Virus record (IMG/VR): IMGVR_UViG_2548876944_000012
Length of the DNA: 4,054 nucleotides
Strand: one strand, 5' to 3'
Origin: a virus
Taxonomy: Duplodnaviria; Heunggongvirae; Uroviricota; Caudoviricetes
Numbering within the stretch: position 1 is the stretch's first letter; each line of letters starts with the position of its first letter. Below are positions 543 through 4,031 of this stretch, piece by piece. The position numbers were made by a program, and so were the translations under genes. The notes beneath the pieces are model-generated. The model worked only from the letters and a program-made list of their open reading frames with translations. It made no database searches and was not told the DNA's origin.

Positions 543-572
543 AGCCAGCGCCCACTCTGAAGGACGCTGGCT
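543..572 (-). terminator. GC-rich hairpin whose poly-T tract lies on the minus strand; orientation uncertain
   Basis: AGCCAGCG (543-550) pairs with CGCTGGCT (565-572), with two further inner CC/GG pairs. On the + strand it is preceded by an A-run (537-543) and followed by TAAAAC, which is not U-rich. On the - strand the hairpin is followed by TTTTTTTATTA, the canonical intrinsic-terminator layout. It sits right after the stop of the 227-535 ORF. Confidence 0.35.
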
Positions 573-669: not shown

Positions 670-747
670 CTGAATCAGGGGTTGGTCGGAATGTTATCTG
701 GCATTTTTAGCAGAGCCTGAATGCCATAATCACGGCTCCCGGAGTTG

Positions 748-782
748 GCCGTCAGTGGGTGACACTGGCGGCTTTTTGTTTT
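748..782 (+). terminator. Strong rho-independent terminator just upstream of the holin, tR'-like
   Basis: 10-bp stem GCCGTCAGTG (748-757) / CACTGGCGGC (763-772) with one G-U wobble, 5-nt loop GGTGA, then TTTTTGTTTT (773-782). The holin start is 46 nt downstream. Confidence 0.6.
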
Positions 783-827: not shown

Positions 828-1034
828 ATGGAAAAAATCACAACGGGTGTGTCATACACCACGTCAGCGGTGGGGACGGGATACTGGTTACTGCAGCTGC
901 TGGACAAAGTCTCTCCGTCCCAGTGGGTGGCAATAGGTGTACTGGGGAGTCTGCTGTTTGGCCTGCTGACGTATCTGACTAACCTGTATTTCAAAATCAG
1001 GGAGGACCGCCGTAAGACGGCGCGGGGAGACTAA
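828..1034 (+). CDS. S: Class II holin (pinholin), phage 21 S21 / 933W S-like, 68 aa
   Basis: Translation [68 protein letters not shown] closely matches my memory of the phage 21 S68 pinholin (two TM segments, SPSQW motif, basic C-terminal tail). The track ORF 759-1034 begins at a GTG inside the upstream terminator stem, so the ATG at 828 is preferred. GGAGA at 811-815. Confidence 0.85.
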
Positions 1035-1038
1035 AGCG

Positions 1039-2028
1039 ATGAAGAAAAAATACGAACTGGTTGTTAAAGAGATAAATAATTACCCGGATAAGATTGCTGT
1101 TACTGTGGCACTTGAAATTGGCGGGCATCCGTCGTTGTTGTTGCCACATGTGGCGATTAGTCTTGACCGTACTGAAGGTGCCACGCTGGAGTTCTACGAA
1201 GCTGAGGCGAAAAAACAGGCGAAGCAGTTTTTCATGGATATTGTTGCCGGGTTATGCGAAGGGGATGAACCGTCACCGGAAAAGCGCCCCGTAATTTTAG
1301 ATGCGCAGGATGTATTGATAACCTACAAAGGAAAGCTACCGGGAAGAATTACTTGTTCTCTGAAGATGCCGCCGTCAACACTGCGGTCAGAAAAAGATGA
1401 TGTTGAATCGCGTATTGAAAAACTGGAGTGCTATATCGCTGAATTGAAAAAAAGCACCCCAACAAAAAATGAGGTGCTTGCAGCAGACGAAATGAAAGAA
1501 GCTATTCCTGATCGCGCGGCGAATCTAAGCTGCGCTTCATGGTTGAAAGAGCATCTTCAGCAGCCTGAAAAAAAACGCCGCGATGAGCAGTTTGCTGCGT
1601 TTTACGATTATTGCCGGAAAGTGATGAGCAGAAATCTCGCAGAGTGTTTCAGTATTCATAATGATAATTTCAGTGACCTGGAATGGGAGTGTAACCGGCC
1701 ATCCTTTGTTGTATCCGGTGATGCTGGGAAAATAACCATCTCAGAAAATGGAAAAGTAACACCGCCATCGCACCAGCATAGTGAGGAGCTCATTGAATTT
1801 GCCATTGATTACCTGAAGAACAATAAAAAGCAGGGGCTGATGAAGTGCATTGGTCGTTGCATGGGATATCTGCAGATAGCTGCTGAGATTGAAGCGCTGG
1901 CCAGTGGTGCGGACAAGGATGCAGTTGTGCGGGAGGCTCTTCTTCGTGATTTTGATAATCCGCCCTTTAAAAAAGTGCCGGCTTACTGGTTTCATCCAGG
2001 ACTGACTTATCTTAAAGGACGTATATAA
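1039..2028 (+). CDS. Uncharacterised 329-aa protein inserted between holin and endolysin; function unknown
   Basis: Long uninterrupted ORF. ATG at 1039 lies 4 nt after the holin stop, with GGGGAGA (1024-1030) inside the holin 3' end, which suggests translational coupling to S. No TM segment, signal peptide or catalytic motif that I recognise. Lys/Glu-rich with several Cys (for example CIGRC near the C-terminus). By eye it is more AT-rich than the flanking S, R and Rz genes (not computed). Confidence 0.8.
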   Translation: MKKKYELVVKEINNYPDKIAVTVALEIGGHPSLLLPHVAISLDRTEGATLEFYEAEAKKQAKQFFMDIVAGLCEGDEPSPEKRPVILDAQDVLITYKGKLPGRITCSLKMPPSTLRSEKDDVESRIEKLECYIAELKKSTPTKNEVLAADEMKEAIPDRAANLSCASWLKEHLQQPEKKRRDEQFAAFYDYCRKVMSRNLAECFSIHNDNFSDLEWECNRPSFVVSGDAGKITISENGKVTPPSHQHSEELIEFAIDYLKNNKKQGLMKCIGRCMGYLQIAAEIEALASGADKDAVVREALLRDFDNPPFKKVPAYWFHPGLTYLKGRI

Positions 2029-2070: not shown

Positions 2071-2604
2071 ATGAACACCAAAATCAAATACGGCCTGTCG
2101 GCTGCCGTTCTGGCGCTGATTGCCGCTGGTGCGCCTGCGCCTGATATTCTCGACCAGTTTCTGGATGAAAAGGAAGGTAACCACACCACGGCATACCGTG
2201 ATGGTGCGGGGATCTGGACCATCTGCCGTGGTGCCATCATGGTGGATGGTAAACCTGTTGTTCCAGGCATGAAGTTGTCGAAGGCAAAATGCGCTCAGGT
2301 TAACGCCATTGAGCGTAATAAGGCGCTGGCATGGGTGGAGAAAAACATCAAAGTGCCATTGACCGAACCACAGAAAGCGGGGATTGCGTCATTCTGTCCG
2401 TACAACATTGGCCCCGGTAAGTGTTTCCCGTCGACGTTTTATAAACGAATTAATGCAGGCGATCGCAGGGGGGCGTGTGAGGCGATTCGCTGGTGGATTA
2501 AGGACGGTGGCAGAGACTGCCGTATTCGCTCAAACAACTGTTACGGTCAGGTATCCCGTCGCGACCAGGAGAGTGCGCTGGCGTGCTGGGGAATTGACAG
2601 ATAA
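2071..2604 (+). CDS. R: SAR endolysin (lysozyme, T4-lysozyme-like fold), 177 aa
   Basis: The translation has a weakly hydrophobic Gly/Ala-rich N-terminal signal-anchor-release segment (YGLSAAVLALIAAGAPAP). Glu35, Asp44 and Thr50 (EGNHTTAYRDGAGIWT) sit at the positions of the phage 21 R21 / T4 lysozyme catalytic triad. Overall it resembles the lysozymes of 933W-type phages and E. coli cryptic prophages, as recalled from memory. There is a 42-nt gap after the upstream ORF and no strong SD. Confidence 0.9.
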   Translation: MNTKIKYGLSAAVLALIAAGAPAPDILDQFLDEKEGNHTTAYRDGAGIWTICRGAIMVDGKPVVPGMKLSKAKCAQVNAIERNKALAWVEKNIKVPLTEPQKAGIASFCPYNIGPGKCFPSTFYKRINAGDRRGACEAIRWWIKDGGRDCRIRSNNCYGQVSRRDQESALACWGIDR

Positions 2605-2694: not shown

Positions 2695-2736
2695 AAAACC
2701 CCGTTTGTTGGCTGCAAGCGGGGTTTTGTGTTTCCT
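2695..2736. terminator. Bidirectional rho-independent terminator in the R-Rz gap
   Basis: AAAACCCCG (2695-2703) pairs with CGGGGTTTT (2719-2727), 9 bp. On the + strand it is followed by TTTTGTGTTT; on the - strand by TTTTTACTTTTATT. Confidence 0.5.
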
Positions 2737-2902: not shown

Positions 2903-3370
2903 ATGAACCGCGTACTGTGCGTGGTCATCATTGCCCTGCTGGTGGCCTGTGGTGCGCTTAGTCTGGGGCTGAATCATTACCGTGATAACGCCATAACCTA
3001 CAAAGAGCAGCGCGATAAAAAAGTCAGTGAGCTGGAGCAGGCAAATGCAACCATTACTGATATGCAGCAGCGCCAGCGTGATGTTGCTGCACTTGATGCC
3101 AGATACTCGAGGGAATTAGCCGATGCGAGAGCTGAAAATGAAACTCTTCGCGCTGACGTTGCCGCTGGTCGTAAGCGCCTGCGGATCAACGCCACCTGTC
3201 CAGGCTCCGTGCGTGAAGCCCCCACCACCTCCGGCGTGGATAATGCAACCGGCCCCCAACTGGCAGACACCGTTACACGGGATTATTTCACCCTCAGAGA
3301 GCGGCTGATGACGATGCACAAGCAACTGGAAGGGGCACAGGACTATATCCGCACTCAGTGCCTGAAATAA
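2903..3370 (+). CDS. Rz: i-spanin Rz (inner-membrane spanin), 155 aa
   Basis: N-terminal TM segment followed by NHYRDNAITYKEQRDK...RDVAALDA...AENETLRADVAAGRKRLRI...DYFTLRERLMTMHKQLEG, which is near-colinear with lambda Rz as recalled. It contains the embedded +1-frame Rz1. Confidence 0.9.
   Translation: MNRVLCVVIIALLVACGALSLGLNHYRDNAITYKEQRDKKVSELEQANATITDMQQRQRDVAALDARYSRELADARAENETLRADVAAGRKRLRINATCPGSVREAPTTSGVDNATGPQLADTVTRDYFTLRERLMTMHKQLEGAQDYIRTQCLK
3123..3308 (+). CDS. Rz1: o-spanin Rz1 (outer-membrane lipoprotein), 61 aa, embedded in Rz in the +1 frame
   Basis: MRELKMKLFALTLPLVVSACGSTPPVQAPCVKPPPPPAWIMQPAPNWQTPLHGIISPSESG: signal peptide with lipobox VSAC (Cys20), a penta-proline stretch, and a PPPPPAWIMQP...QTPL...GIISPSE core shared with lambda Rz1 as recalled. 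Lies wholly inside Rz in another frame. ATG at 3138 is an alternative start. Confidence 0.85.
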   Translation: MRELKMKLFALTLPLVVSACGSTPPVQAPCVKPPPPPAWIMQPAPNWQTPLHGIISPSESG

Positions 3371-3720
3371 GTTTTGTTGATGCGCCGTATCGTCGCTGTA
3401 TTCCCTCATTAACAGAGACCGCAGCCCGACAGGGAGACTCCTCTGCGCGAGTGTGCGGGGATAATCAAAAACGATACACACCGGGGTTTACCGCGTTAAC
3501 GGAGCGCGGCGTTGTCCCCTCATAGTCGCCTGTCCGGTGCGATGGTGGAAGAAGTCGGATGTTTATCACTATTAATTGATGACACAGAAATGGATTCATT
3601 GAATTTCAGCACGTTTTTGTATTCGTGTTATTGAACATCTGTTTATTTTACTTTTAACATATTGATAATAAAAAGAGCTGTAAATCTTTAGATGAGTCGA
3701 TTTTGTCCGGGGAAGTTCAA

Positions 3721-3858
3721 ATGGATTTTATGCTGACGGTTTCTGGTGTGGTTATCCTGTCCATTGCTTATACTGCAGATAAATATGGCTGCCATTTGTT
3801 ATCACGTATTGGCGCTTATTGTTCGTTGATGCTGATTTTCTCGTCGCTTTTTTTTTGA
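3721..3858 (+). CDS. Speculative 45-codon hydrophobic peptide ORF in the AT-rich region downstream of Rz
   Basis: Manual translation gives MDFMLTVSGVVILSIAYTADKYGCHLLSRIGAYCSLMLIFSSLFF. GGGGAAG at 3709-3715 precedes the ATG, and the ORF ends in a T9 run (3848-3856). It sits in a roughly 300-bp AT-rich stretch with promoter-like hexamers. Not in the ORF track (too short); no homology recognised. Confidence 0.2.
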   Translation: MDFMLTVSGVVILSIAYTADKYGCHLLSRIGAYCSLMLIFSSLFF

Positions 3859-4031
3859 GTAAGTTATATTAATTATAACAAATAATTTTCTGTGTTATTT
3901 TTTCAGGCTATCCCGTCAGAGGGGAAGCCTGTACTGCCGGGGAGCGAATGGAAAACTGATGTGTCCGGTAACTGCGTGTTCTGTGAACACCATGTTACTT
4001 AGACTGGCCCCCTGAATCTCCAGACAACCAG

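Follow-up and report, generated by a model that had tools for sequence, protein, structure and literature searches.

The 990-bp gene located between the holin and endolysin genes of the phage DNA analyzed here encodes a 329-aa protein that is almost certainly a long two-module member of the YdfR/DUF1327 family (PHROG 1085), optional in lambdoid (Stx-phage-like) E. coli prophages. The window, i.e., the whole 4,054-nucleotide stretch taken from IMG/VR virus record IMGVR_UViG_2548876944_000012, carries this gene on the same strand as the lysis genes around it. The gene is not a new system; its family is catalogued, and it is a common late gene in E. coli prophages.

Lysis cassette and position of the gene

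A 329-codon ORF, running from ATG to TAA, was found between S and R in the six-frame ORF list. An earlier reading of the same DNA, made from the sequence alone, had put a 990-bp ORF between a pinholin gene and its SAR endolysin gene, and both the coordinates and the Pfam identities of the neighbors agreed with it. The features of the cassette were as follows.

828..1034, + strand: S, phage-21-type class II holin (pinholin), 68 aa; Pfam PF04971 (Phage_holin_2_1, P21 holin S family), E 1.4e-32, and PHROG holin families
1024..1029, + strand: GGGGAG Shine-Dalgarno sequence within the 3′ end of S, 9 nt 5′ of the ATG at 1039; from the sequence
1039..2028, + strand: long YdfR-family gene, 329 aa, predicted soluble cytoplasmic two-module protein; ORF list, PHROG 1085 and RefSeq name
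1039..1263, + strand: N-terminal DUF1327 domain, aa 1–75, predicted as three beta strands followed by a long helix; PF07041, AlphaFold2 pLDDT 70–87 for aa 1–70
1264..1692, + strand: variable Pro-rich linker and predicted coiled-coil/helical segment, aa 76–218; alignments and low pLDDT
1693..2025, + strand: conserved C-terminal domain, aa 219–329, predicted as a three-strand meander and four helices
2029..2070, + strand: 42-nt spacer 5′ of R, without a Shine-Dalgarno sequence; from the sequence
2071..2604, + strand: R, lysozyme-type endolysin with a Gly/Ala-rich, SAR-like N-terminus, 177 codons; Pfam PF00959 (Phage_lysozyme), E 2.6e-24, and PHROG 7 endolysin
2903..3370, + strand: Rz i-spanin, 155 codons; Pfam PF03245 (Phage_lysis), E 2.2e-47
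3123..3308, + strand: Rz1 o-spanin embedded in Rz, a 61-aa lipoprotein-like ORF; ORF list

The GC content of the 329-codon ORF was 45.3% (GC3 43.6%), which is about 9 points under that of S (54.1%), R (53.7%) and Rz (55.1%), and the gene was indeed richer in AT than its neighbors, as had been suspected. Neither a transmembrane segment nor a signal peptide was detected in the 329-aa protein, the highest 19-residue Kyte-Doolittle mean being 1.09, again in agreement with the earlier reading. As for S itself, the codons upstream of its start read IHQ-M, with ATA instead of ATG 9 nt 5′ of the start, indicating a single-start allele. We considered whether loss of the S dual start goes together with the presence of the gene; this was rejected, as a MYQM or MKSM dual start is kept in most gene-bearing loci.

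Family assignment

The ORF had been described as unrecognised, and this description was overturned by the profile searches. The Pfam family DUF1327/YdfR (PF07041) matched aa 1–100 over profile positions 1–88 of 93 with 132.1 bits against a cut-off of 25 (E 8.5e-39), and PHROG 1085 matched the whole protein, aa 1–329, over profile positions 1–296 of 296 (E 2.5e-180). The identical protein is catalogued as G2583_2458 or as "YdfR family protein", which is also the RefSeq label of the 990-bp gene, and it occurs on at least 999 contigs. Furthermore, the corresponding slot of the K-12 Qin prophage has been occupied by essQ-ydfR-rrrQ since annotation. Many complete E. coli genomes, among them O55:H7 CB9615, RM12579 and the DEC5 strains, had the 990-bp sequence at 100% identity; some match was present in 2389 of 5426 complete E. 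coli genomes, and 491 of the 5426 had a match over at least 80% of the length.

In one complete genome, the surroundings of the identical copy comprised a Q antiterminator, tRNAs, a SASA esterase (nanS-p type), the holin, the gene itself, lysozyme, Rz and terminase. The prophage there is lambdoid and Stx-phage-like. In the same genome record, PGAP gave the identical ORF merely as a 336-bp "incomplete" pseudogene. The type member of the family is a single-domain protein of about 100–115 aa, while the present protein has 329 aa and an extra conserved C-terminal domain. This longer architecture is a variant and is no bar to DUF1327 homology.

None of the libraries searched gave a functional assignment for the 329-aa protein. 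With PADLOC, neither the full protein nor its C part nor the Salmonella homologues matched a defense protein model at E values up to 1, and the idea of a single-gene defense system was not borne out. The NCBIfam search returned noise only, and no relation of the 329-aa protein to a holin or antiholin family was found in Pfam or PHROGs. A released toxin had also been suggested; having neither a signal peptide nor a toxin-like domain, the protein does not have that profile.

Junctions and transcription signals

The S stop codon TAA (1032–1034) is separated from the ATG at 1039 by 4 nt, and the GGGGAG at 1024–1029 lies within S, confirming the arrangement from which coupling to the holin stop had been proposed. 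Through this Shine-Dalgarno sequence inside S, the 329-codon gene is translationally coupled to S. An alignment with VT2-Sakai, H-19B, Stx2_95 and Stx2_12E129 showed that the same GGGGAG-type site serves R in "empty" cassettes. Insertion of the gene moves R off the S-internal Shine-Dalgarno sequence and onto a 36–42-nt leader that has none. In the present window, the 42-nt spacer at 2029–2070 before the R ATG contained no GGA, GAG or AGG, as the earlier reading had remarked in noting the lack of a good Shine-Dalgarno sequence there.

The consensus scan found no sigma-70-like promoter on the + strand in or before the ORF, overall counts being at chance level, and no convincing terminator flanking it, in line with the earlier statement that the gene has no such signals of its own. 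The sole terminator-like site on the + strand near the ORF was a weak 6-bp stem within it, at 1119–1134. The Rfam search yielded just one match, to a rimP-leader at 2671–2760 on the minus strand, which was sub-threshold and was taken as chance. Prophages of the source type have a Q antiterminator upstream. A gene without a promoter of its own should therefore ride the Q-dependent late transcript, and, given the coupling to S, the soluble protein would appear only late in lytic growth, alongside the holin.

Carriage of the gene between S and R

We then compared lysis cassettes with and without the gene. In K-12 Qin, essQ is followed after a 4-nt gap by ydfR (103 aa) and then by rrrQ, whose start overlaps the ydfR stop. 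The annotated S, R and Rz genes of phage H-19B leave a 400-bp gap, which holds an unannotated 114-codon YdfR ORF. In VT2-Sakai, no gene lies between S and R, and R starts 4 nt after S, the junction again being GGGGAGAGTAA-NNNN-ATG; S and R are thus adjacent where the ORF is absent, the outcome that the earlier reading had proposed to look for in related cassettes. Of the phage records, 427 had a P21-type holin and 105 gave a tblastn match to the 329-aa protein; about a quarter of the records with such a holin carry a family member.

In all 80 of the 80 IMG/VR loci with the C domain, the copy lay between S and R. These loci were divided into 27 with a fused gene, 42 with a C-only gene coupled to S and 11 with a disrupted one. 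The fused or C-only gene began 3–4 nt past the holin stop in the E. coli loci examined, and the spacer before R measured 36 or 42 nt or about 452 nt across the 80 loci. Alignment identified the 42-nt spacer as the "empty site" of a convergent phrog_1853 gene found in related cassettes, and this small gene often accompanies the YdfR family. A scan of species-representative genomes gave 3 loci.

The gene is optional cargo at a conserved insertion point and no core lysis gene. The sequence-only reading had viewed it as a moron carried on the late lysis transcript. This view stood as far as optional cargo with presence/absence variation and deviating GC is concerned; it did not stand in the sense of an independent transcription unit with its own promoter and terminator.

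Domain architecture and predicted structure

AlphaFold2 gave a poor model of the full-length protein (mean pLDDT 47.9), in which the N domain, three strands and a helix, reached pLDDT 70–87. When aa 206–329 were modeled with a more diverse alignment, the model was confident (pLDDT 86.9, pTM 0.80), and a three-strand meander followed by four helices was predicted. The linker (aa 76–218) was rich in insertions and deletions and mosaic among homologues. Within its helical part, at aa ~139–176, the 329-aa form has a 33-residue insertion relative to the 296-aa and 268-aa forms.

In an alignment with the Salmonella homologues, 11 residues of the C domain were invariant (L259, G272, R273, L278, Q279, A281, P309, K311, W317, P320 and Y324), and H247 was nearly so. 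The clustered cysteines, such as CIGRC, had been put forward as a possible metal site. This was rejected: most homologues have R or K in place of C270, the position of C274 varies between C, S and A among the Salmonella homologues, and no Cys was invariant across the two homologue alignments. The pI of the C domain was 6.3, i.e., the domain is not basic.

The C domain matched no described family, and Pfam searches with 11 diverse C domains gave no consistent one. PDB sequence searches with the full protein and with the C-domain profile stayed at chance level, the best matches being PhoU (E 0.041), in which no stretch was significant, and RBM41 (E 0.4). Foldseek reached at best E 0.76 against viral structures in BFVD, and E 0.18 against the PDB with the low-confidence full-length model. 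Matches of that model to dsRBD and RNase III structures (E 0.5–0.7) were not significant and were not used as evidence. Neither the Pfam nor the structure searches found a nuclease- or RNA-binding-like relative of the C domain.

Evolution of the two-module form

The homologues fell into three classes and were strikingly mosaic. N-only forms have 103–114 aa in K-12, H-19B and most Stx1/Stx2c phages, or 183–211 aa with a coiled coil. C-only forms have 185–222 aa, begin with the coiled coil and start 3 nt past the holin stop. Fused forms have 268, 287, 296, 305, 329 or 333 aa. With aa 120–329 as the query, HMMER was run exhaustively against 1.84 billion representative proteins and retrieved only 29 representative relatives, and in a follow-up profile search, all relatives given with a source organism were from Escherichia, Shigella or Salmonella.

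Several distant relatives of 192–314 aa, including a Salmonella enterica protein, had the same two-module layout. Their C domains were 35–45% identical to that of the 329-aa protein, and their N domains, which lie under Pfam detection, were yet aligned to E. coli DUF1327 by hhalign with 89.6% probability (E 1.9e-6, 71 columns). From this layout common to the E. coli and Salmonella homologues, we infer that the N+C architecture is ancestral and that the short YdfR proteins are derived truncations.

The dN/dS ratios for four diverged homologues were 0.14–0.21 in the N domain and 0.14–0.50 in the C domain, and the overall ratio against full-length homologues was 0.27–0.34. As judged from these ratios, both domains are under purifying selection. 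For one partner, dS was ~2.25 in the N domain versus 0.18 in the C domain, a roughly tenfold difference between segments compared with the same partner, which indicates recombination within the gene.

In Salmonella, the gene is found in the interval from Q to the lysis genes, 5′ of the holin, and can be downstream of artAB-like ADP-ribosyltransferase toxin genes or of a ParE/HTH pair. The neighboring holin is of the P21 type or of the HP1 type (PF16080). A strict tie to P21-type holins was therefore rejected, since some Salmonella homologues adjoin an HP1-type holin. The Salmonella placement and the mixed holin types thus connect the family with the late lysis-proximal accessory region, not with one holin family. 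Three points were absent from the literature searched: the two-domain ancestry shared with Salmonella, the standalone C module in the same slot, and the C module having no described relative.

Possible functions

We tentatively propose that the 329-aa protein may be a late-made cytoplasmic RNase E/RNA adaptor with the C domain as its effector, an interpretation drawn by analogy with K-12 YdfR, to whose aa 1–74 the N domain is 41% identical. The N-terminal DUF1327 domain would bind the catalytic N-terminal half of host RNase E, RNA, or both, as has been reported for K-12 YdfR; the variable coiled-coil linker would give oligomerisation, and the C-terminal domain would act as an effector or a second binding surface. 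As an outcome, RNA decay might change as infection draws to its end, e.g., through protection of the long late transcript or redirection of RNase E. The N-only K-12 YdfR, which hardly affects the transcriptome, would then be a truncated remnant.

The RNase E link of the YdfR family comes from a 2026 screen (PMC13232886), the sole experimental work on it that we found. There, residues 1–72 of K-12 YdfR sufficed for a two-hybrid signal with RNase E 1–597, and a weaker signal was obtained with RNase G (PMC13232886). Strep-YdfR co-purified FLAG-Rne 1–598, and its eluate held DNase-resistant nucleic acid, for which a contaminant as the source of the RNA could not be excluded (PMC13232886). Overexpression of K-12 YdfR was non-toxic and changed few transcripts, and ydfR was nearly silent in growing K-12 cells, with almost no RNA-seq reads (PMC13232886). 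Phage proteins acting on RNase E are otherwise represented by T4 Srd, T7 gp0.7 and phiKZ Dip (PMC4980113).

Several observations speak against the adaptor proposal. The RNase E link comes from one study of a 41%-identical, N-only homologue that hardly affected the transcriptome, and the C domain has neither a basic pI nor nucleic-acid-related features. Moreover, C-only forms were the commonest (42 of the 80 IMG/VR loci), and the C domain must therefore be able to work without the RNase E-docking module. A role in RNA decay also leaves the constant lysis-gene neighborhood unexplained.

In the main alternative explanation, which we regard as doubtful, the protein would act from the cytoplasm as an accessory regulator of pinholin/SAR-endolysin lysis; produced in stoichiometric amounts with S, it would tune the timing or sharpness of lysis. 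By analogy with the soluble antiholins P1 LydB or T4 RIII, such a regulator could bind the charged cytoplasmic tail of S or alter the supply of R. It is favored by the position of the E. coli gene, fused or C-only, 3–4 nt after the holin stop at every locus examined and of the Salmonella gene just 5′ of the holin, by the displacement of R from the S-internal Shine-Dalgarno sequence to a 36–42-nt leader lacking one, and by the present S allele, in which the extra Met that precedes the start in the dual-start (antiholin) motif is missing. An envelope-integrity screen, as cited in PMC13232886, also reported a K-12 ydfR mutant. However, the 329-aa protein has no transmembrane segment and no holin or antiholin similarity, and the occurrence of HP1-type holins (PF16080) in Salmonella makes specific recognition of an S21-type holin unlikely. 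In addition, the gene is missing from many phages that have the same S and R, and the adjacency may reflect just a permissive insertion site in the late operon.

In a wider reading, which we hold to be unlikely, the fused N+C protein would be the ancestral, complete late effector of a temperate phage, of which K-12 YdfR is a truncated remnant; either DUF1327 would aim the activity of the C domain at RNase E, or the C domain would act on the lysis machinery from the cytoplasm. If true, Shiga-toxin-type prophages would carry a new class of phage protein for host takeover or lysis control, and the recurrent convergent phrog_1853 gene might act with it.

A fitness, exclusion or defense role in the lysogen, where read-through or a cryptic internal promoter would drive transcription and the product would protect or benefit the host, is improbable; the earlier reading had listed a defense or exclusion factor among its alternatives. 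Cargo genes typically show low GC and presence/absence polymorphism, the small convergent phrog_1853 gene is often alongside the family, and two published data sets point in the same direction: a probe labeled as CFT073 ydfR (c1434) was among the sigma-S-favored transcripts in an in vitro run-off array (PMC3141248), and the streptomycin MIC rose threefold with plasmid-borne ydfR in one screen (PMC12924614). Nevertheless, no promoter-like site was present on the + strand in or before the ORF, and the gene is tightly coupled in translation to the holin gene, which is itself silent of necessity in lysogens. The near absence of K-12 ydfR RNA-seq reads from growing cells (PMC13232886) and the lack of a PADLOC match also argue against it. 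Finally, it is very improbable that the ORF is a selfish or decaying filler, a mosaic remnant without current function in a slot prone to recombination: mosaicism is extreme, truncated or frameshifted copies are many (11 of 80 loci disrupted, N-only and C-only forms common) and PGAP calls the identical copy an incomplete pseudogene, but dN/dS is 0.14–0.50 across both domains, both keep invariant residues between Escherichia and Salmonella, and the identical intact protein occurs on at least 999 contigs.

Significance

K-12 YdfR counts among the E. coli "y-ome" genes, and in many Shiga-toxin and related prophages, a gene of its family is part of the lysis cassette. Shiga toxin release depends on the lysis cassette. 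The 103-aa K-12 protein that has been studied is the N module alone of a two-domain protein conserved in Escherichia and Salmonella, and this status may account for the weak effect of its overexpression. A standalone C module without a described relative occupies the same slot, which makes the long form or the C domain the construct of interest. The practical stakes are modest: in EHEC/EPEC prophages, the gene might influence the timing of lysis, the burst size or the stability of the late transcript.

Comparison with known systems

The soluble antiholins P1 LydB and T4 RIII are cytoplasmic proteins that are encoded beside the holin gene and made with the holin. In sequence, neither showed similarity to the 329-aa protein in any library searched. 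With regard to the adaptor proposal, T4 Srd targets the catalytic N-terminal half of RNase E, as does K-12 YdfR (PMC4980113, PMC13232886). However, T4 Srd, T7 gp0.7 and phiKZ Dip have no sequence or fold similarity to the 329-aa protein, an Srd-like BFVD entry being matched at E 2.3, and they belong to the early or middle gene classes of virulent phages; the present gene is a late one, and its phage is temperate.

The Salmonella homologues (e.g., the 192-aa one encoded 3′ of artAB-like toxin genes) combine a divergent DUF1327-like N domain with the same C domain and are encoded in the late operon near the lysis genes. They differ in that the gene is 5′ of the holin and not between S and R, the coiled-coil linker is lacking, and the N domain is under Pfam detection. 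K-12 YdfR (b1555, Qin) has a homologous N domain (41% identity over aa 1–74) and the same position, 4 nt after essQ and before rrrQ. It consists, at 103 aa, of the N domain and a short helix, to which the 329-aa protein adds the linker/coiled coil and the C domain of ~110 aa; the K-12 ydfR stop overlaps the rrrQ start, compared with the 42-nt gap before R here. The 296-aa and 268-aa YdfR family proteins (PHROG 1085) share the N+C architecture, the slot and the coupling to S with the 329-aa form, which is distinguished from them by its 33-residue linker insertion and a different N-domain allele.

Mosaicism and variants of the YdfR-family gene

Intragenic mosaicism of the YdfR-family gene (window 1039-2028) was judged against two homologues, L013 and L015. 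Compared with L013, the synonymous divergence was ~2.2 for the N domain, against 0.18-0.25 across the linker and the C domain. Such unequal divergence between segments for a single homologue implies recombination break-points within the gene. A 305-aa variant, represented by locus L020 (3001-3918), was also common, with 268 contig-index blocks listing it. Residues 1-209 of this variant were 94% identical to the window protein, after which the C-terminus was unrelated, and a 500-bp gap separated the variant from R. The L020 variant is probably a rearranged or disrupted copy.

The annotation of the long form was inconsistent between records. In NZ_CP027548.1 (locus L008), the 990-bp ORF recurs with 100% identity, and RefSeq/PGAP called this copy a 336-bp "incomplete" YdfR pseudogene (12001-12336), whereas the full 329-aa protein was called in other records.

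A convergent gene downstream of the YdfR-family gene

In several of the compared loci, the YdfR-family or C-domain gene was directly followed by a convergent phrog_1853 gene encoding ~104 aa, as listed below.

L003, 3052-3366 (-), phrog_1853 gene
L017, 3652-3966 (-), phrog_1853 gene
L009, 5599-5916 (-), phrog_1853 gene
L105, 4021-4338 (-), phrog_1853 gene

The ~104-aa protein gave no Pfam or PADLOC matches. In E. coli, the gene was present in 29 of the 80 IMG/VR loci sampled for the C domain, and in Salmonella it was found in two distinct contexts; the Salmonella copies were 51% identical to those of E. coli. It was cleanly absent from the window, where 2029-2070 forms the empty site. The phrog_1853 gene may work together with the YdfR-family or C-domain gene; alternatively, it may be independent cargo.

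Regions flanking the lysis genes

Upstream of S, two small late-region ORFs and two terminator-like hairpins, both GC-rich with an 11-bp stem and a T tract, were observed.

61-252, small ORF with a DUF826 match (E 1.3e-27)
266-535, small ORF, ~89 aa, without a match in the NCBIfam search
543-572 (-), terminator-like hairpin
747-773 (+), terminator-like hairpin

The region matching 61-535 is annotated in related phages as DUF1378 plus DUF826. The (+) hairpin lies within the late transcript, 55 nt ahead of the S start.

At 819-830, the S allele of the window reads IHQ-MEK..., with ATA rather than ATG at the codon 9 nt before the 68-codon start. The first of the two starts in the phage-21-type dual-start (antiholin/holin) motif is therefore missing from this allele. 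The H-19B allele likewise has ATA at that codon; in most related loci, the sequence is MYQM or MKSM. No general correlation was found between the dual-start state of S and the presence of the YdfR-family gene.

The R-to-Rz interval (2605-2902) constitutes a second accessory slot, which in many Stx phages is filled by ant, an antirepressor gene, together with small ORFs. After Rz, the sequence at 3500-3900 is AT-rich, with GC down to 32%. These regions contained the following features.

2695-2727 (+), strong 14-bp hairpin with a weak T tail
2728-2901, 57-codon ORF just after the hairpin, with a hydrophobic segment; phrog_6632 (family of unknown function)
3703-3858, small hydrophobic ORF in the AT-rich stretch

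The counterpart of the last ORF in a related genome is annotated as a 45-aa hypothetical protein.

Comparison with a Salmonella homologue

In the Salmonella locus L009, artAB-like genes (3157-4469) were located ~0.5 kb upstream of a two-domain homologue, and the first of them matched Pertussis_S1, Scabin-like and Enterotoxin_a with E around 1e-5. This placement of the Salmonella homologue near artAB-like genes resembles that of the E. coli lysis region, which lies close to stx.
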